A stretch of 64,000 bases of DNA from Escherichia phage vB_EcoM_KAW3E185. The notes under the pieces were generated by a model. That model ran no database searches and was not told where the DNA came from. It saw only the letters and a list, made by a program, of their open reading frames with translations. Location: the sequence record MK373782.1, one strand, 5' to 3'. Shown one piece after another: positions 18,521 through 63,043 of the stretch; position 1 is the first letter of the stretch, and each line of letters starts with the position of its first letter. The position numbers and the translations under genes are program-made.

Positions 18521-18550
18521 ATAGTATCACACATCCGTGTGTTTGTAAAC
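18521..18550 (-). promoter_or_regulatory. Early promoter (GTTTAC / TACTAT)
   Basis: GTTTAC-18 nt-TACTAT on minus strand, immediately after the alt stop. Confidence 0.5.
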
Positions 18551-25438: not shown

Positions 25439-25467
25439 ATAATAACATAACCTGTACCAAAGTAAAC
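25439..25467 (-). promoter_or_regulatory. Early promoter (GTTTAC-17-TATTAT)
   Basis: Consensus early promoter; −10 embedded in an 11-bp inverted repeat. Confidence 0.55.
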
Positions 25468-25935: not shown

Positions 25936-25966
25936 TAAACGCACAAAAGGGAGACCGAAGTCTCCC
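25936..25966 (-). terminator. CUUCGG tetraloop terminator hairpin
   Basis: gggagac-cgaa-gtctccc; minus transcript has a UUCG loop followed by UUUUGUGCGUUU. Confidence 0.55.
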
Positions 25967-30146: not shown

Positions 30147-31232
<1,086 letters not shown>

Positions 31233-31233
<1 letters not shown>

Positions 31234-31532
31234 TATTTGATTCCTAAGAAAGCTTCAAGAATACGAATGTTGAGTTCGCGCCGGTCTTTATTAATTTCAG
31301 CAACGTTTTTATTAATTGACGTACTTCTAACGTTTGAAGAAATAAATTTAATCATATGACTTTTGAGTTGTTGCAAATCCAACCCTTTTTCTTTAGCAGC
31401 TTTACGAAGAGCTTTACCTGCTTCATCTAGTGCCTTTGCTGCATCTTTGTCATAATCTACAAGTGTCATTCCACGGCAGATATCAATATACTCATCAGAC
31501 CGTTTGATGTAATTCTCTAGTAATGTTTTCAT
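31233..31532 (-). CDS. Hypothetical protein
   Basis: 99-aa ORF. Confidence 0.45.
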
Positions 31533-31560
31533 TTAGATTTCCTCAATTATCCATAGGAGC

Positions 31561-31590
31561 ATTATACTCTGCTCCCGAGAGTTTGTAAAC
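31561..31590 (-). promoter_or_regulatory. Early promoter (GTTTAC-18-TATAAT)
   Basis: Perfect −10 TATAAT embedded in palindrome ggagca…tgctcc; near-duplicate of the promoter at 61403-61432. Confidence 0.55.
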
Positions 31591-31814
31591 TATTTTACTA
31601 AAGATTCAATATACTCATGAAGAGCTTTAGTCGCTACTGCCCACTTATTCTGATATTCATTTTTCAGATTAGCACGAGACTGAACTAACAAGCGGTCATT
31701 AGTCGGAGGCAAAGATTCTAATCGTTGAATCTGGCGTCCATAAATCATAGCCGCCATTTCAGATTCATAGATAAGCCCTTTAATGTATTCATGCTGTTCT
31801 TTAGTCATTGGCAT
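31590..31814 (-). CDS. Hypothetical protein
   Basis: 74-aa ORF. Confidence 0.45.
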   Translation of the reverse strand: MPMTKEQHEYIKGLIYESEMAAMIYGRQIQRLESLPPTNDRLLVQSRANLKNEYQNKWAVATKALHEYIESLVK

Positions 31815-32966: not shown

Positions 32967-32996
32967 ATAGTAACACCTTCCTTGGTGTTTGTAAAC
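32967..32996 (-). promoter_or_regulatory. Early promoter (GTTTAC-18-TACTAT) for alc
   Basis: Consensus match overlapping the rnlA stop. Confidence 0.5.
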
Positions 32997-34149: not shown

Positions 34150-34178
34150 ATTGTACCACAATCCTTGTGGTGTGTAAA
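34150..34178 (-). promoter_or_regulatory. Early promoter (GTTTAC-17-TACAAT) for rnlA
   Basis: Consensus match. Confidence 0.5.
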
Positions 34179-34589
34179 CTACTTTTTCTTATGTTGGATA
34201 TTCCAAGGCGGGTTGAACTTTTTGATAAAAAGCGGTTCTTCAAGGTCCATTGTTGCGATGGTCATTGAACCAAGTTCGTTGGTGACTGAAAGGTCAAAAC
34301 ATTGGCGGGCCCAGAATTCAACCTTTTTGCCTTGCATTAAGGCATCCAAAATCATAAGTGATTTTCTTGAATCTGAAGTCTGGTCTTTTCGATTTATGGC
34401 TGTTCGATAATAGTTAATGCGTTTCTTTAAATTCTTGGTTTTACCAATATACACAAGTTCGTCATCTATAGCAATAGCATATATGACATTTTTCTTATTA
34501 GGGACATCAACTGTTTTAATTGTTGCATCTTCTAATAGCTCCAATTCTGTATATTTAATAAAGGAATATTCGGCGGCGATATCTTTCAT
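34179..34589 (-). CDS. denA: Endonuclease II
   Basis: 136 aa, near-identical to T4 EndoII (…VIYAIAIDDELVYIGKTKNLKKRINYYRTAINRKD…). Confidence 0.9.
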   Translation of the reverse strand: MKDIAAEYSFIKYTELELLEDATIKTVDVPNKKNVIYAIAIDDELVYIGKTKNLKKRINYYRTAINRKDQTSDSRKSLMILDALMQGKKVEFWARQCFDLSVTNELGSMTIATMDLEEPLFIKKFNPPWNIQHKKK

Positions 34590-42855: not shown

Positions 42856-42885
42856 AGATACTCAAAAGGGAGACCGAAGTCTCCC
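42856..42885 (-). terminator. CUUCGG tetraloop terminator downstream of gene 32
   Basis: gggagac-cgaa-gtctccc; minus transcript has a UUCG loop followed by UUUU. Confidence 0.6.
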
Positions 42886-46103: not shown

Positions 46104-46133
46104 ATAGTAACACACTCATTTGAAAGCGTAAAC
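46104..46133 (-). promoter_or_regulatory. Early promoter (GTTTAC-18-TACTAT) for rnh
   Basis: Consensus match. Confidence 0.5.
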
Positions 46134-46174: not shown

Positions 46175-49100
46175 ATGGCCGACATCAAACGTAAGTTCAG
46201 AGCCGAAGACGGTCTGGACGCCGGTGGCGACAAGATTGTTAACGTAGCATTAGCCGACCGTACAGTAGGTACTGATGGCGTAAACGTTGACTTCCTGGTA
46301 CAAGAAAACACCGTTCAAGTATATGATTCTACGCGTGGATATAACAAAGGATTTGTTGTTCTTTATGACAACCGTTTATATCAAGCAATAAATGATATCG
46401 TGTCTCCTTCCGGGGCATTTAACCTTTTACAATGGCGTGCAGTTCGTACCGATGCACAATGGATAACTGTCGCTTCTGGGACTTATCAACTTTCTTCAGG
46501 TGAATCTATTTCGGTTAACACTGGTGCCGGCAATGATATGGTTTTCACGTTGCCGAATACGCCGGTTGATGGCGATACTGTTGTTTTGGCTGATATTGGC
46601 GGAAGAACCGGAACAGTTAAAGTACAGATTAACGCGTCTGTGCAGAGTATTTTAAACTTTAGAGGTGAACAAGTTCGTACAGTTTTAATGACGCGTCCGC
46701 GTTCACAACTATTGTTTGTGTTTAGTAATCGTTTGTGGCAGATGTATATTATCGATTATGGTAAAGAATCAATCACTGTTACACCTGCGACACCATATCA
46801 AGCACAAGCAAATGATTTTATCGTTCGTCGTTTTACTAGTGCAGCACCAATCAACATTACACTTCCACGTAATGCCAACAATGGTGATATAATCCACCTA
46901 GTTGATTTAGATAAATTAAACCCACTGTATCATACAATTGTTAAAACATTTGATGATACAACGTCTATTGGTGAAGTCGGGACTCATATTGCCGAAGGCA
47001 GAAATGACTCTGACGCGTTTTTTGTTTTTGATGCTGCGAATAGTTTATGGCGTATATGGGAAGGCGACCAGAAATCGCGTCTTCGTATTATCCGTGCGGA
47101 TTCAAACATTCGTCCAAATGAAGAAGTTCTTATTTTTGGCACAAATAACGCTACAGCCGGAACTATTAATCTTACGCTGCCTACCGGAATTTTGAGTGGT
47201 GACACTGTTAAAATTTCAATGAACTACATGCGTAAAGGCCAAACAGTAAAAATTAAAGCTGCCGAAGGTGATACAATTGCTTCTTCTGTTGCATTGCTTC
47301 AGTTCCCTAAACGTTCTGAATATCCACCTGATGCTCAATGGGTCTCTGTTACTGAACTAGAATTCAATGGCACTACTTCATATGTTCCTGTATTAGAATT
47401 AGCGTATATCGAAGACACCGTTGCTGGTACACGTTATTGGGTTGTGCAACAGAATGTCCCTACGGTAGAACGTGTTGATGCTGGATCTGATGCTACACGA
47501 GCTCGTTTAGGTGTTATTGCTCTTGCTACTCAAGCGCAAGCAAATGTTGATTTAGAGAATACTCCAGCTAAAGAAGTGGCTATTACTCCTGAAACGTTGG
47601 CAAATCGTACAGCAACTGAAGCTCGACGTGGTATCGCTAAAATTGCTACAACAGCACAAGTTAATCAGAATTCCACAGCATCATTTGTGGACGATACTAT
47701 TGTTACGCCTAAAAAACTAAATGAGCGTACAGCAACTGAAACTCGTCGCGGTCTTGCTGAAATTGCTACTCAGGCCGAAACCGATGCTGGTCTTGATGAC
47801 ACAACGATTATTACACCTAAGAAATTGCAGGCACGTCAGGGTTCTGAAACACTATCTGGTATAGTTAAATATGTATCAACTACTTCTGCTACTCCTGCTG
47901 AAACTCGTGGGGCCGCAGGCACTAACATTTATAATAAAACCGTAAATAATTTAACTATTTCTCCTAAAGCCCTTGACCAATATAAAGCAACTTATGCTCA
48001 ACAAGGTGCAGTAATTTTAGCTGTTGATAGTGAAGTAATTGCTGGTCAATCCCAAGCAGGTTATTCTCACGCTGTAGTAACTCCTGAAACACTACATAAG
48101 AAAACTTCTACTGATGGACGTATTGGTTTAATTGAAATTGCTACGCAAGCAGAAACTAATGCTGGGACTGATTATACACGTGCAGTAACGCCTAAGACGT
48201 TAAATGATAGGAGAGCGACGGAAGGATTATCCGGCATAGCCGAACTTGCTACGCAAGTCGAATTTGATACTGGAACTGATGATACTCGTATCTCGACTCC
48301 ACTGAAAATTAAAACTCATTTTGATTCTTCTGACCGTACCAGTGTTAATTCTGATTCCGGACTTATTGAAGAAGGAACCTTGTGGAACCATTATACTCTT
48401 GATATTTCTAAAGCAAATGAAACACAACGTGGTACACTTCGCGTAGCGACCCAGGCAGAATCTAATGCAGGAACTTTAGATGATGTTCTTATTACTCCTA
48501 AAAAGCTTTTAGGGACTAAGTCCACTGAAACGTCTGAAGGCGTAATTAAGGTTGCTACTCAGGCTGAAACTGTAACAGGAACTTCTGCTAATACTGCTGT
48601 ATCTCCTAAGAATTTAAAATGGATTGTCCAGAACGAACCAACATGGGCTGCTACTACAGCAATTCGCGGATTCGTTAAAACTTCATCCGGTTCTATTACA
48701 TTCGTTGGTAATGATACAGTTGGTTCAACACAACCTTTAGAATCATATGAAAAAAATAGCTATGCTATATCTCCATATGAATTAAACCGTGTACTTGCTA
48801 ACTATTTGCCATTGAAAGCTAAAGCCGTAGATAGTAATTTATTAGATGGCCTAGATTCATCTCAGTTCATTCGTAGGGATATTGCACAGACGGTTAATGG
48901 TTCACTAACCTTAACCCAACAAACGAATCTGAGTGCCCCTCTTGTATCATCTAGTACTGCTACGTTTGGTGGTTCAGTTTCGGCAAATAGTACATTAAGT
49001 ATTTCTAATACTGGAACGGCAACTCGTCTGATTTTTGAGAAAGGACCTCAAACTGGAACTAACCCAGCACAGACGATGACTATCAGAGTTTGGGGAAATC

Positions 49101-51922: not shown

Positions 51923-54900
51923 ATGGCTACATTAAAACAGATACAATTTAAAAGAAGCAAAGTGGCAGGAGTTAATCCTACTGCAGCACAATTAGCCGAA
52001 GGCGAATTAGCGATAAACTTAAAAGACCGAACTCTTTTTACTAAAGATGACCTCGGTAATATTATTAGCCTAGGCTTTGCTAAGGGCGGGGATATTAACG
52101 GTAATGTAACTCAAACTGGTGATTATTTACAAAACGGCGCGTATAATCTCAATGGAAATCAGTTTGTTTATGCAGGAAAATACATTGAATTTTTACCTAA
52201 AACCACTGGAAATGGCGCTTGGGCTAACCAACATTCGAATAAAGCCCCTATCTTTACAGATTTAAGTTCAACTACTTCTGTTTCAGAATACCATCCACTG
52301 ATTAAACAACGCTATAAAGATGGAACTTTTTCTGCCGGTACATTAGTAAACGAAGGTAGTTTTAAATTCCATTATATTGATGAAACCCGGACTTCAAAAT
52401 ACTGGACTTTTAATCGAAACGGTAATTTTCAAGTTGATTCCGGAAGTTTATTAGTATCTAATGGATATTTAGTTACTCAAAGTAATATTGAAACTAAAGC
52501 TGGTTCTTTAATTGGTCCTAAAGTTATTACCAAAAATATCAATGTGAGCACTAAATCTTGGGACACTAATATTGATACTGCATATGATTTAGTTTCATTA
52601 CCGACTTGGCAGTATACTCCAACCGAAACGGATTTGGATACTAATGGTATAAACTACCTTCGTAAATTCCGCGGACATGTTTCTTCTGCTATTTTCCATG
52701 AAGTTGCTGATGCTCGTTCAGGTAAACCACAGAATATTTCGTATTGGACGGGACGTAATGCCGAAGTTTATCAATGGTCTTATACCACAGATGGGCGTAT
52801 GTCTGTTGCTAATTCGATAGGTATAGGTCTTGCTGATGTTGGTGACCAAGGACGTTATCCATTGGTTTCGTTTGGTAAAGGTATTGCAATTGGTGACAAT
52901 GATACTGGTATTAAATGGGTTCGTGACGGCGTTATTGATTTGATTGCTAACGGGGTTTCGACCGGTACAATAAACAGTACTGGTATTAACAGCACTAAGA
53001 AATTGATGGTCGGTTATAGCCGCGATTCTGGTACTACTTGGGATTACCCAAATAACAACCAAGCAATGTTTACTGCGCGCACCGATGTTGATGGTAATAA
53101 TAACGGCGATGGACAGACTCATATCGGTTATAGCAGCAATGCCAAGATGTATCACTATTTCCGTGGTACAGGTCGTATGTCCGTTAGTATGGGCGATGGA
53201 CTTCTTGTTGAGCCCGGCATTTTAGATATTAAAACCGGTTCAAATTCGCTAAATTTGCGTGCTGATGGTACCATCGCTTCTGTTCAAACGTTAAAACTTA
53301 ATAACGGATTATATTTTAATGGTGATGGAACTAATGCTTCTCTAGTTTTTAAAGCAGCTTCAGGTATTGATGGCACTAAGCAAATAATGTGGGAAGGCGG
53401 TACTCGTGCAGGTCAGAACAAAAGTTATGTGACCGTGAAAGCATGGGGTAACTCATTTAATGCTACTGGTGATAAAGCTCGAGAAACCGTATTTGAGGTT
53501 TCTGATGGCCAAGGTTATTATTTCTATTCTCAACGCGTAGCTCCGACCGGTTCTGAAACTACAGGCCCTGTTGTAACCCAGTTCAATGGACAAGTTAATG
53601 CTAGAGGAAGTATTATTACTGACGGAAGTTTTAAAGTTAATGGATTAAGCACTTTAGTCGGTAATGTTACTATGTCTAATGGTTTGTTTGTCCAAGGTGG
53701 TTCTTCTATTACTGGACAGGTAAAAATTGGTGGAACGGCTGATGCATTAAGAATTTGGAATGCTGAATACGGTGCTATTTTCCGTCGTTCTGAAGATAAG
53801 CTTTATATTATTCCAACTCCAAAGAATGTTGGTGAATCAGGTGGTATTTCTAATTTACGTCCGTTCTATATTGCATTAAGTAACGGTAAAGTTTCTATGG
53901 ATCATGACGTAGATATAGGCGGCGGTAGATTTAAAGTAGAAGCGGCTGGAACTACGGCTGGTCAACGCATAACAGTAAATATGGCATCAGATGCTATTAG
54001 AATAAATGCCCCAACACAAGAATCTTCTAACTTCATCCAAGGACGTAAAGAAGATGTTCCGAAATGGTATTTAGGTATTGGCGATGGCGGCAACGTCGTT
54101 CGTATGCACAGTTACACCTACTCCCATGGTATTGCATTAAACTCTGATACGGTTGATATAGCTAAACCTCTTAGAATAGGTTCAACCCAGATTGGTACTG
54201 ATGGTAATATTACCGGTGGTTCTGGTAATTTTGCTAACTTGAATACAACAATAAATAACCTTAAGACAGATATTGTCTCAAGTTATCCTATTGGTGCTCC
54301 GATTCCTTGGCCTACTGATACACCTCCTGAAGGTTATGCCATAATGGAAGGTCAAACATTTGATGCTGACTTGTATCCTAAGTTAGCTGCAGTGTATCCT
54401 TCCGGCGCTCTGCCTGATATGCGTGGTCAAACTATCAAGGGTAAACCATCTGGGCGTGCTGTATTGAGTACAGAAGCAGACGGTGTTAAGTCACATAGCC
54501 ATAGTGCAAGTGCATCAAGCACAGATTTGGGTACTAAGACCACTTCTAGTTTTGATTACGGTAGCAAAACGACTTCAAGCTTTGATTATGGTACTAAGAC
54601 CAGTAATACCACCGGCAACCATAACCATACGGTAAGTGGAACTACCAGTTCAGCCGGTGCTCACCAACACGCGCGTTCAGGTCCTCAGGTCACTGCTGCA
54701 TGGGCAAACGATTTGTTTAGAGACGGGGTTACTACGATAGGTGCAAACTCATATGCTAAAATTAACTCAGGTATCACTGGTTCGACTTTAGCAACTAAGG
54801 TCGGTAAAACATCAAATGACGGTGCCCACACCCATAGTTGGTCAGGAACTACTAGCTCTACGGGTAACCATGCTCATACGGTAGGTATTGGTGCTCATAC

Positions 54901-55039
54901 CCATTCGGTAGGTATTGGTGCTCATTCTCATACTGTTGCAATTGGTTCCCATGGACATACAATAACTGTAAATGCCACAGGAAATACAGAAAACACAGTT
55001 AAAAACGTTGCTTTTAACTATATCGTTCGTTTAGCATAA
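51923..55039 (+). CDS. 37: Long tail fibre distal subunit gp37 (receptor-binding), T4-type
   Basis: 1038 aa; C-terminal His-box repeats (GNHNHT, GAHQHA, GAHTHS, GNHAHT, GAHSHT, GSHGHT) and T4-like C-terminus [11 protein letters not shown]. Confidence 0.95.
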
Positions 55040-59125: not shown

Positions 59126-59242
59126 TGTTTTGTGAGAAAAATGCACAAAAAGGAGCCGAAGCTCCCTAATCATGTTTGTCCAACCAATACAGCCAAATCA
59201 CTAGTGCAGCTATTGCACCGAGAAATCCTAAGGCTAGGGCAC

Positions 59243-60911: not shown

Positions 60912-61358
60912 TTAGTAACTCTGCAGAATGAATTTGAAATTATCAGCCAGAAGACGGTTCATTTCAGTGAGTGTTTGATATTCTGATGTATGATTGCGAG
61001 TGAATGCCAGAGCCAATTGTCCTTTACCATAACCAGTGGTCAGTGGTTTCATGTTCTTAGCTGCAACAAAGATTACATCATATTCAATATTGTTAGTGCC
61101 CATGGTACGGGCTAGTTGTGAACGGCCTTGACGAATGTGAGAAAGAATTGCATCCAACCCTTGTTTAGAACGTTGACGTCCTACAAAGAATCGTGCTGCT
61201 ACTTGTCGCCAATCAGATGAACCTTTAACAAAGAAGTAAAAACCTTCACGAGAACGAAACTCTTTAGAAACTTCAGAACCGTATTCACCATTACGAACTA
61301 CTGCAACAACTTCACCGCCAACTGCCAGAAGGTCTTTACGAGTTAAATATTTGGACAT
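60912..61358 (-). CDS. ndd: Nucleoid disruption protein Ndd
   Basis: 148 aa; strong C-terminal identity to T4 Ndd (…[20 protein letters not shown]…[11 protein letters not shown]). Confidence 0.85.
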
Positions 61359-61402
61359 GCTAATTTCCTCAATTGATTAATGTTTTTGTAATCCATGAGA
61401 GC

Positions 61403-61432
61403 ATTATACTCTGCTCTCAAGAGTTTGTACAA
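61403..61432 (-). promoter_or_regulatory. Early promoter (TTGTAC-18-TATAAT) for ndd
   Basis: Near-duplicate of the promoter at 31561-31590, with palindrome gagagca…tgctctc around the −10. Confidence 0.5.
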
Positions 61433-61434
61433 TT

Positions 61435-61635
61435 TTATTCGGCCATATCAGAACGTTCAAAAAGCTCTTCAACAGTTAAACATTCAGTGTCATCTTCAAT
61501 AAAGAATCGAGTCCAACACGTTGGGGCGATACAGTTATGAGTTTGTCCGGCGATAGAAGCTACACGAATAAGCTGCTGACCGTTATTCAGAACAAATTTT
61601 TCACCAATTTCAACATCTTTAAAAAGCTTAGCCAT
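61435..61635 (-). CDS. Hypothetical protein (ndd.x-like)
   Basis: 66-aa ORF. Confidence 0.4.
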   Translation of the reverse strand: MAKLFKDVEIGEKFVLNNGQQLIRVASIAGQTHNCIAPTCWTRFFIEDDTECLTVEELFERSDMAE

Positions 61636-61663
61636 TTTGTGTTCCTCATATTTTGATAGGACT

Positions 61664-61693
61664 ACTATACCATAATCCTACCTTGATGTAAAC
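61664..61693 (-). promoter_or_regulatory. Early promoter (GTTTAC-18-TATAGT)
   Basis: Consensus match; near-duplicate of 62180-62209. Confidence 0.5.
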
Positions 61694-61889
61694 AATTAAA
61701 TTAAATTACATTAAAGTATGTTAAAGCCAACCATGTTCCAGTGAACGAACATGCGATGTAAAAACCGTATCACAAATTGTTCTTAGTACAATAAGAAGTG
61801 CATTTTTCATAAGTACCTCAATGCAATTGAAAATATTATACAAATCATAGGGATACTAAGCAACCATATTCCGATCCACATTTTAGAGC

Positions 61890-62153
61890 TCATAGCTCAA
61901 CTTCCGCGAGTTCCATATATCCTTTGTTGATAACCTCTTTAAGGTCTTTAGAAAGAATAACACTAAAATGGTCGTTCATATGTCCATTAACTAAACGAGT
62001 TATTTCGGCTTCAGATGACATATAAGGCACGTCTGAGTCCCAATGAGATAGACCCAAATGAGTATAAATCATCCCTTCGTCATCTGCAGTGTTGTACATT
62101 GAAACAAATTCGCCTGTTACTTTATGTTTTGCGTAGAAAAATTTAAATTTCAT
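61890..62153 (-). CDS. Hypothetical protein (ndd.x-like)
   Basis: 87-aa ORF. Confidence 0.45.
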   Translation of the reverse strand: MKFKFFYAKHKVTGEFVSMYNTADDEGMIYTHLGLSHWDSDVPYMSSEAEITRLVNGHMNDHFSVILSKDLKEVINKGYMELAEVEL

Positions 62154-62179
62154 GATGTTATCCTCTTTTAGATAGGACT

Positions 62180-62209
62180 ACTATATCATAGTCCTACTTA
62201 GTTGTAAAC
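62180..62209 (-). promoter_or_regulatory. Early promoter (GTTTAC-18-TATAGT)
   Basis: Consensus match; −10 inside the 8-bp palindrome taggacta…tagtccta. Confidence 0.5.
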
Positions 62210-62221
62210 ACTTTTATGAAA

Positions 62222-62779
62222 TTAAAGATGAAGATACCACCCGTTGTAGTTGCTCTTGCGGACGATTTTCTTTAGGTCTTCATGGTCTCCCACGAACTTT
62301 ATAGAATAAGAGAAGACGTCGGGTGAGGTTTCTTTGACATCTAATATAATAATGCAATCTGCGACTCGATGGTTCAAGAAGGGCCCTATATTGATTCCAT
62401 TACCACCCGGATAATCACCACCGTATCCTGTGGTAACCGAAATCCATTTCGAATCCATCTGATGGGTCTTGACTTCGACACGCAACCCGCAGTATTTAGG
62501 ATGAGCTAACACGTCCCATGCATACGTGTACGGGTCTTCTACGTCTTCATTACCTTTATTAACATATCCGTCTAGCCAATTTGCTACTACATACTCTGCA
62601 AAGACTGCAACCTTACAACGTCGAACAACGTCTTCTTTTATTTGACCTGGATCTTGTTTCAACGAGTACCGAGCAGTGTCAGCAATCTTCACCTTCATTT
62701 CACTAGTCAAAAACTCATTCGACAGGATAAATGTCGGAAGACTCTTCAGCCTCAACAGCCCCAAGTTCGTCTTTACCAT
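62222..62779 (-). CDS. denB: Endonuclease IV
   Basis: 185 aa from MVKTNLG (SD GAGG upstream), matching T4 DenB length; the ORF-track start is 21 codons further upstream. Confidence 0.7.
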   Translation of the reverse strand: MVKTNLGLLRLKSLPTFILSNEFLTSEMKVKIADTARYSLKQDPGQIKEDVVRRCKVAVFAEYVVANWLDGYVNKGNEDVEDPYTYAWDVLAHPKYCGLRVEVKTHQMDSKWISVTTGYGGDYPGGNGINIGPFLNHRVADCIIILDVKETSPDVFSYSIKFVGDHEDLKKIVRKSNYNGWYLHL

Positions 62780-63011: not shown

Positions 63012-63038
63012 TAAAGAAAAAAGGGGACCGAAGTCCCC
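63012..63038 (-). terminator. CUUCGG tetraloop terminator after rIIB
   Basis: ggggac-cgaa-gtcccc; minus transcript has a UUCG loop followed by UUUUUUCUUU. Confidence 0.6.
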
Positions 63039-63043
63039 AATTA

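Follow-up and report, generated by a model that had tools for sequence, protein, structure and literature searches.

Why should two distant early promoters of a T4-like phage share, besides their hexamers, a palindrome wrapped around the −10 box? The question is raised by a 64,000-nucleotide (nt) stretch of Escherichia phage vB_EcoM_KAW3E185 (MK373782.1), hereafter the window, in which two near-identical sequences lie on the minus strand, copy 1 at 31549-31586, next to the pseT.1 homologue, and copy 2 at 61391-61428, next to ndd. The preliminary description of this DNA had read both as a −35 element, 18 nt and TATAAT, with the −10 inside an inverted repeat, and had proposed either a dimeric DNA-binding regulator acting at the −10 or a conserved RNA hairpin in read-through transcripts. 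As argued below, each copy is probably a regulatory cassette of the promoter-early stem-loop (PeSL) type that occupies the entire space separating two co-oriented early genes; of the two proposed readings, the RNA hairpin is supported and the dimeric regulator is disfavoured.

Both strings paired in the preliminary description (31551-31590 and 61391-61430) are present where it placed them and, in each, the −35, the 18 nt and the TATAAT are found on the minus strand with the −10 enclosed by the inverted repeat. A 38-nt degenerate pattern occurs at exactly two places in the window at 0 mismatches, namely copies 1 and 2, with 0 expected (100 shuffles), and the two are 85% identical across 46 nt. 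Read on the minus strand, copy 1 is GTTTAC aaactctcGGGAGCAgag TATAAT GCTCCTatggat and copy 2 is TTGTAC aaactctTGAGAGCAgag TATAAT GCTCTCAtggat. Actually, the likeness is longer than first described: it starts at the stop codon of the upstream gene, is interrupted by an indel, copy 2 having 19 extra nt between hairpin and Shine-Dalgarno, and then continues via AATTGAGGAAAT, which holds the Shine-Dalgarno, to the start codon. Since it spans stop codon to ATG, the duplicated unit is the whole intergenic cassette, the parts of which are as follows:

31533 to 31592, minus strand: copy 1 cassette, from the pseT.1 stop (TAG, 31592-31590) to the base preceding the ATG of an open reading frame (ORF) of 99 amino acids (aa), i.e. 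the entire intergenic block.
31561 to 31590, minus strand: copy 1 promoter core, with −35 GTTTAC at 31590-31585 (TTTACA at 31589-31584) and −10 TATAAT at 31566-31561.
31555 to 31576, minus strand: copy 1 hairpin, with 5′ arm GGGAGCA at 31576-31570, loop GAGTATAA containing the −10, and 3′ arm TGCTCCT at 31561-31555.
31541 to 31544, minus strand: copy 1 Shine-Dalgarno GAGG of the 99-aa ORF, whose ATG lies at 31532-31530.
61359 to 61437, minus strand: copy 2 cassette, from the ndd.1 stop (TAA, 61437-61435) to the base preceding the ndd ATG.
61403 to 61432, minus strand: copy 2 promoter core, with −35 TTGTAC at 61432-61427 (TGTACA at 61431-61426) and −10 TATAAT at 61408-61403.
61396 to 61419, minus strand: copy 2 hairpin, with 5′ arm TGAGAGCA at 61419-61412, loop GAGTATAA, and 3′ arm TGCTCTCA at 61403-61396.

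As promoters, the two copies are ordinary for their kind. A sigma-70 consensus scan calls copy 1 as TTTACA-17-TATAAT (11/12) and copy 2 as TGTACA-17-TATAAT (10/12), and the A+T content reaches 85% in the 20 nt upstream of the copy 1 −35 and about 65% (counted by eye) upstream of that of copy 2. In both, a stop codon abuts the −35 box and a Shine-Dalgarno and ATG follow within 25-45 nt. Judging only from the spacing, transcription from copy 1 would start near A31554, and that from copy 2 presumably near A61396. RB69 carries both cassettes with identical sequence, inside the early promoters Pe:136687 (copy 1) and Pe:165022 (copy 2) predicted by Nolan et al. (2006; PMC1524935, Additional file 3), a paper that makes no mention of stem-loop, hairpin or palindrome at promoters. 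T4 early promoters (GTTTAC-N-TATAAT, with UP-like A-tracts) have the same hexamers and spacing; however, their consensus neither includes nor explains a complementarity between spacer and start site.

It is this complementarity that calls for an explanation. In both copies the −10 hexamer lies in an 8-nt loop; in copy 1 the core arms GGAGCA (31575-31570) and TGCTCC (31561-31556) make 6 base pairs (bp) plus one G·T, with a local energy of −11 to −12 kcal/mol, the stem of copy 2 has 8 bp, and from one stem to the other a G-C pair has become A-T by a compensatory double change. The −10 hairpin is also the sole element retained in the centroid structures of 121-136-nt transcripts of both copies. 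It corresponds to no known RNA family, as the Rfam 15 covariance models gave no match at 31300-31800 and, in 61200-62300, only a chance match to a small nucleolar RNA (E = 0.45). Neither is it a site for RegB, since the GGAG present in the 5′ arm of copy 1 is missing from copy 2 (GAGAGCA) and from GGGACCA variants and is not conserved. Sequestration of the Shine-Dalgarno was likewise discarded, this element being unpaired in the predicted structures of both copies.

Relatives of the cassette allow the pairing itself to be examined. The IMG/VR database was scanned with flanks and loop fixed, nine positions of one stem side and eight to nine of the other being left as N, which returned 24 loci; this stem-free pattern replaced an earlier 16-mer scan in which about 21 of 76 hits were true cassettes, the rest being mostly chance matches in coding sequence. 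With T4 and one T4-like record added, 18 distinct variants were aligned, in which 97.2% of cells keep standard pairing and five of the eight stem pairs have both partners changed (GC/AU; GC/CG/UA; CG/AU; AU/GC). For covariation, the score is 0.408 vs. 0.226±0.029 for shuffled alignments (0/500 reach the observed value), a comparison that overstates independence, the variants being related by descent. Sliding the 3′ partner by 1-3 columns lowers pairing to only 35-49%, and an alignment of 15 variants agrees. The covariation result is not circular, the search pattern having left the stem positions free.

The changes are also not neutral with respect to strand. Every one-sided change in the stem makes a G·U or U·G pair on the mRNA-sense strand, i.e. 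a C·A mismatch on the other one, and the sense fold is stabler than the antisense one in 17 of 22 hairpins taken from the family and from other window and T4 promoters, with a mean of 2.4 kcal/mol. As far as sequence comparison tells, the stem is kept by selection for pairing on the mRNA-sense strand. The pattern argues for a single-stranded sense structure, RNA or, less likely, non-template DNA, and not for a symmetric duplex-DNA site. The preliminary description had named as a refutation the loss of the palindrome in related phages that keep the hexamers; in the relatives compared here, the pairing is conserved.

These relatives reach well beyond the closest ones. The phage of the window is an RB69-type T4-like phage of the genus Mosigvirus, and a 1.2-kb probe around copy 1 matches Escherichia phage vB_EcoM_G53 at 100% identity and about 160 other records at 95-99%, T4-type phages aligning only over pseT.1-pseT.3, at about 75%. 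The 66-nt cassette alone finds by BLAST 1254 places in 731 phage records, with three to four places per genome in RB69-type phages and one, at motB, in T4-type phages; no further copy was found in the first 50 kb of G53. The cassette being present in RB69, in JS98-like phages and, upstream of motB, in T4, the two copies are not a private pair. At least six flank contexts were encountered: pseT.1 precedes various first ORFs (MKT/ELLENYI, MS/TLRDNSFV, MKILWYVEN), ndd.1 precedes ndd, there are three more ORF pairs and, in T4, motB.1 precedes motB, the sequence there being GTTTAC aaactcttGGGACCAgag TATAAT GGTCCCgtgg.

The architecture is also shared, within the window, by promoters of unrelated stem sequence. 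Among the 17 minus-strand early promoters curated there, two classes of hairpin-bearing promoters can be distinguished:

−35 first base at 25467, 29464, 31590, 42386, 56627, 61432, 61693 and 62209, minus strand: early promoters with a −10-spanning hairpin (8/17), of local energy −5 to −18 kcal/mol.
−35 first base at 2481, 18550, 32996 and 34179, minus strand: early promoters with a hairpin wholly within the spacer (4/17).

The stems of the first class (GGTACAGGT, GGTGGAGTT, ATAGGGCT, TAGGACT, GGAGCA) are unrelated to one another in sequence; those of the second (32967-32996, 34150-34179, 18521-18550 and 2452-2481) are ACACC..GGTGT, CCACAA..TTGTGG and ACACA..TGTGT. When the 16 nt downstream of the −10 were exchanged among the promoters of the window, the mean energy of native spacer/downstream pairs was −8.75 kcal/mol vs. 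−5.43±0.56 for swapped ones, and 0/2000 permutations reached the native value; since swapping raises the energy, each spacer is specifically complementary to its own start-site region. In T4, −10-spanning hairpins occur at several early promoters, including the orthologues of those at 25467 and 29464, in which all differences from the window copies keep the pair or make a wobble. The −10-spanning hairpin marks a subset of promoters, concentrated regionally as in the window, and is not claimed genome-wide.

Where the promoter has little structure of its own, a hairpin is found elsewhere. The three promoters of weakest internal structure (25911, 42836 and 59125) are preceded, 16-31 nt upstream of the −35, by a UUCG-tetraloop hairpin with a T-run, and no canonical terminator stands upstream of the window promoters that have a −10-spanning hairpin. 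The promoter at 46133 has neither hairpin nor terminator and faces oppositely oriented late genes. In T4, the ndd.1-ndd spacer (166041-166100) holds a GGCCG...CGGCC hairpin and no early promoter, the orthologous place in RB69-type phages being occupied by promoter and hairpin. Taken together, this suggests that one sense-strand hairpin is required per early intergenic spacer, and that it is superimposed on the promoter where the spacer is compact.

Several further observations concern these same promoters. On the minus strand, UUCG-tetraloop terminators (GGGAGACTTCGGTCTCCCTTTTG and GGGAGCTTCGGCTCCTTTTTG) recur as near-exact repeats, at 25944-25966, 42863-42885, 63017-63039 and about 59141-59165, the first two being identical 23-mers; most of them lie 16-31 nt upstream of an early promoter without internal hairpin, a terminator-then-promoter order that represents the 'classical' form of the cassette. 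A start-site/leader motif, AGACCTATCAA(C/A)AACA...GAGG, is common to many early promoters, e.g. at 2451-2430, 42807-42785 and 59096-59075, and in the hairpin-bearing ones the pyrimidine-rich start region is the pairing partner of the spacer arm. A spacer-only hairpin of the same kind as those of the window is present in the T4 promoter at 167086 (CCACAAGGACCGTGG).

A published class accommodates all this. PeSLs were described by Arbiol et al. (2010; PMC2839356) and Comeau et al. (2014; PMC4122927), and the class expressly includes stem-loops overlapping the −10 box as well as stem-loops placed between −35 and −10 (PMC2839356). One RB49 stem-loop of the class lowered lacZ expression as a strong terminator does (PMC2839356), and PeSL recombination has been implicated in the shuffling of ORFans (PMC2839356, PMC4122927). 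The class was later extended to T4/PST and KVP40/nt-1, with the stem-loops there just upstream of the promoter (PMC4122927). At the level of sequence, copies 1 and 2 have every trait of a PeSL: a sigma-70-like early promoter, a stem-loop within it with the −10 in the loop, conserved pairing and G·T pairs in the stem, an AT-rich tract upstream of the −35, an extent from stop codon to Shine-Dalgarno/ATG that fills the spacer, and repetition within the genome (the window holds two members of this subfamily and 17 early-promoter cassettes) beside variable small ORFs in hyperplastic regions, ndd-denB included. As for the differences, RB49 and phi1 have GGGG...CCCC stems and a TTGACA −35, whereas the stems here are AT-richer and devoid of a U-tract, and terminator activity is on record for one RB49 stem-loop only. 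The two copies are instances of this already published class and reveal no new mechanism, a class that the preliminary description had missed, along with the membership of the copies in a family spread across many T4-type phages.

What is added concerns the evidence and the scope. The sections of PMC2839356 and PMC4122927 covered here do not contain the covariation and strand-bias evidence, and the two papers do not cover the RB69-type genus; besides, the apparent interchangeability of the stem-loop with upstream terminators and the existence of one subfamily common to T4 (motB), RB69-type and JS98-type phages are brought in. Two predicted RB69-type early promoters are hereby placed among the PeSLs, extending the class to Mosigvirus, and a descriptive motif becomes a testable RNA-level element, the stem of which is kept by compensatory and G·U changes across T4-, RB69- and JS98-type phages.

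From the promoter consensus, the conserved pairing, the strand bias and the multi-context distribution, the following mode of action can be proposed. As duplex DNA, the cassette would serve as a T4-style sigma-70 early promoter, GTTTAC-N18-TATAAT. Transcripts initiated there would start about 7 nt past the −10, hence without the 5′ arm, and would therefore be unable to form the hairpin. RNA reading through from upstream early promoters, such as the pseT.1 transcripts in the case of copy 1, would hold both arms and fold the 6-8 bp hairpin with the −10 in its loop, marking or limiting the 3′ side of the upstream message. A part in pausing or attenuation, as a barrier to 3′-exonuclease or in insulating the ribosome-binding site (RBS) is plausible, and the hairpin may also leave the downstream RBS free. 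It would do the job of the separate terminator hairpin found upstream of other early promoters. Finally, a block of about 45-60 bp repeated within and between genomes could offer short homology for recombination, by which small ORF modules would be moved, e.g. the two ORFs between pseT.1 and pseT. The RNA reading fits the covariation, the sense-strand wobble bias, the alternation with terminators and the promoter-less ndd.1-ndd hairpin of T4.

Such a hairpin can be compared with two known RNA elements. Intrinsic terminators, including the T4-type ones with UUCG tetraloop, are likewise sense-strand intergenic RNA hairpins following a stop codon, in an apparently interchangeable position; unlike them, the copies have no U-tract, a larger 8-nt loop holding the −10 and a weaker stem, and they are not called by a terminator scan. 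T4 gene e (PMC3014915) also has a promoter embedded in a hairpin that read-through RNA can fold and RNA from the internal promoter cannot; yet its internal promoter is a late one and its 3′ arm sequesters the Shine-Dalgarno/ATG, whereas in the copies the Shine-Dalgarno lies 7-26 nt past the stem and is unpaired in the predicted structures.

Several points weigh against the PeSL reading as developed here, beyond the common descent of the aligned variants. For the phage of the window we infer initiation, read-through and 3′ ends alike, as well as the effect of the hairpin on the RNA and its role in recombination. The stems are short, and the 121-136-nt contexts are no more stable than shuffles (folding z-scores of only −0.39 for copy 1 and −0.15 for copy 2), the local hairpin alone standing out. 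No U-tract follows the hairpin at either copy (tails AUGGAUAAUUGA and UGGAUUACAAAA), and the tails scored for intrinsic termination (ATGGATAATTGA and TGGATTACAAAA) lack the U-run; the terminator scan of the window called neither hairpin, and the TransTerm list of Nolan et al. for RB69 has no entry at the coordinates of the copies. Because of the missing U-tract, the missing scan call and the missing TransTerm entry, canonical intrinsic termination is unlikely and, in the strict sense that demands a T-run after the hairpin, was rejected. GenBank annotation (WebGeSTer/TransTermHP) does make a 'rho-independent terminator' overlap a 'promoter', both at the copy 1 orthologue and at the T4-type motB copy. 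Of the ten strict early promoters in the first 50 kb of G53, a single one carries a −10-spanning hairpin, and the permutation test does not reach significance there (447/2000). Lastly, G·T wobbles are tolerated in single-stranded DNA too, which leaves room for a hairpin of the non-template strand.

This last point leads to the alternative that the inverted repeat acts in DNA, extruding under supercoiling, replication or recombination as a cruciform or single-strand hairpin that would modulate promoter opening or offer a structure-specific target (e.g. of endonuclease VII), making the cassette a recombination hot spot. The cassettes do lie at module junctions, and Arbiol et al. mapped a mini-circle crossover within a PeSL loop and speculated that the stem-loop might be targeted by a recombination protein (PMC2839356); in addition, the strand bias fits a non-template hairpin as well as RNA. 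A cruciform, however, needs both strands paired, and C·A mismatches weaken the antisense one. Extrusion is also poor for stems of 6-8 bp closed by 8-nt loops, and both the alternation with RNA terminators and the promoter-less hairpin in the orthologous T4 spacer point to a role at the RNA level, which leaves an action in DNA an unlikely, though not negligible, explanation.

At a comparably low likelihood stands the possibility that the hairpin is an RBS insulator and not a transcript-end signal, in which the purine-rich 5′ arm would mask the pyrimidine-rich start region (CTCC/CCTA, resembling an anti-Shine-Dalgarno) from the downstream Shine-Dalgarno. In folding predictions of read-through RNA, the native 5′ arm gives the Shine-Dalgarno a higher unpaired probability than a shuffled one does at seven of seven promoters, e.g. 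0.61 vs. 0.46±0.10 at 61432 and 0.52 vs. 0.31±0.03 at 61693. The effects are nevertheless small (0.03-0.21), with 0.67 vs. 0.64±0.13 for copy 1 and only about two of the seven beyond two standard deviations, thermodynamic prediction is their sole basis, and the spacer-only hairpins and the trade-off with upstream terminators are left unexplained. The 'complemented arm' control of this Shine-Dalgarno test was an artefact, as it creates an anti-Shine-Dalgarno sequence.

Two proposals would have the palindrome recognised by a protein. That the hairpin, as RNA or non-template DNA, is a signal read by a phage factor, which would sort read-through from promoter-proximal transcripts or aid the shut-off of early promoters, seems improbable; if true, it would bear on the unexplained early-promoter shut-off of T-even phages. 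More doubtful still is an operator at which a dimeric phage or host protein would bind around the −10 and switch these early promoters off, a conceivable answer to the same shut-off question. The dyad is indeed centred on the −10, where a repressor would occlude sigma-70, reviews call the early-promoter shut-off 'not completely understood', with AsiA not needed, and the copies share with T4 motB an unusually long conserved block. Yet no common half-site exists, the wholly different stems listed above being set in the same architecture at the same position; within the family, the half-sites drift through compensatory and G·T changes that keep the pairing and break the dyad symmetry; stability is biased to one strand, the antisense fold being weaker; and the palindromes are found only at a subset of early promoters, when shut-off is general. 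As for a functionless palindrome, carried as a chance passenger when one promoter underwent recent duplication or gene conversion, the 85% identity over 46 nt and the efficient recombination of T4-type phages on short homology would suit it, but it is hardly credible given a pairing held through at least five independent double-sided substitutions across genera, unrelated stems at the same position in other promoters and the 0/2000 of the permutation test.

Turning from the cassettes to their neighbours, the genes around both copies are on the minus strand:

31590 to 31814, minus strand: pseT.1 homologue, 82% identical to T4 PseT.1, co-oriented with copy 1 and upstream of it.
31233 to 31532, minus strand: 99-aa ORF (phrog_2364, unknown function), downstream of copy 1 and missing at the T4 pseT.1-pseT junction.
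31042 to 31233, minus strand: 63-aa ORF (phrog_8683), homologue of RB69ORF230c, second gene of a block inserted relative to T4.
61435 to 61635, minus strand: ndd.1 homologue of 66 aa, 45% identical to T4 Ndd.1, upstream of copy 2.
60912 to 61358, minus strand: ndd, of 148 aa, the product being 59% identical to T4 Ndd, downstream of copy 2.
61664 to 61693, minus strand: neighbouring early promoter with a different −10-spanning hairpin, TAGGATT/AGTCCTA.
62180 to 62209, minus strand: neighbouring early promoter with −10-spanning hairpin TAGGACT/AGTCCTA.

The placement of copy 2 upstream of ndd and that of copy 1 before pseT-proximal ORFs, both given in the preliminary description, agree with these assignments: between pseT.1 and pseT there are two small ORFs. 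The five flanking small ORFs are all of 'unknown function' in PHROGs. In T4, pseT.1 abuts pseT with no spacer, and therefore 31046-31596 of the window corresponds to an inserted cassette plus two ORFs; nucleotide homology to T4 ends just upstream of the −35 box of copy 1, and no T4 counterpart of the inserted phrog_2364 and phrog_8683 ORFs was found in the ~100 kb of T4 that was covered. JS98-type phages have, behind the same upstream flank and cassette, at least three different first ORFs, among them a homologue of the 99-aa ORF of the window. Three promoter/hairpin cassettes, of which copy 2 is the last, follow one another over about 800 nt of the ndd-denB region (61396-62224; −35 boxes at 62209, 61693 and 61432); for this region, T4 and PST are described as having swapped a gene flanked by PeSLs (PMC4122927). 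The pseT.1/pseT and ndd.1/ndd spacers are thereby concrete junctions at which the swapping of small accessory genes in T-even genomes can be studied, with use in the annotation and engineering of therapeutic T4-like phages.

Some minor observations may be added. Each of the three tandem cassettes in 61396-62224 precedes a small ORF, and 61651-61708 and 62167-62224 are 83% identical and represent a second such subfamily (TAGGAYT/AGTCCTA). IMGVR_UViG_2706795394, a VR26-like phage of JS98 type, has two minus-strand copies of the cassette 412 nt apart in its ndd region, at about 3865 and 4277, with differing compensated stems, GGGAGCA/TGTTCCC and GGGGTCA/TGACCCC. Unrelated to the cassettes, the plus-strand tail-fibre genes (47453-48977 and 54869-54949) contain internal direct repeats, in several families of 44-48 nt, as well as a tandem repeat of 3 x 27 nt that encodes His-x-His-type motifs.

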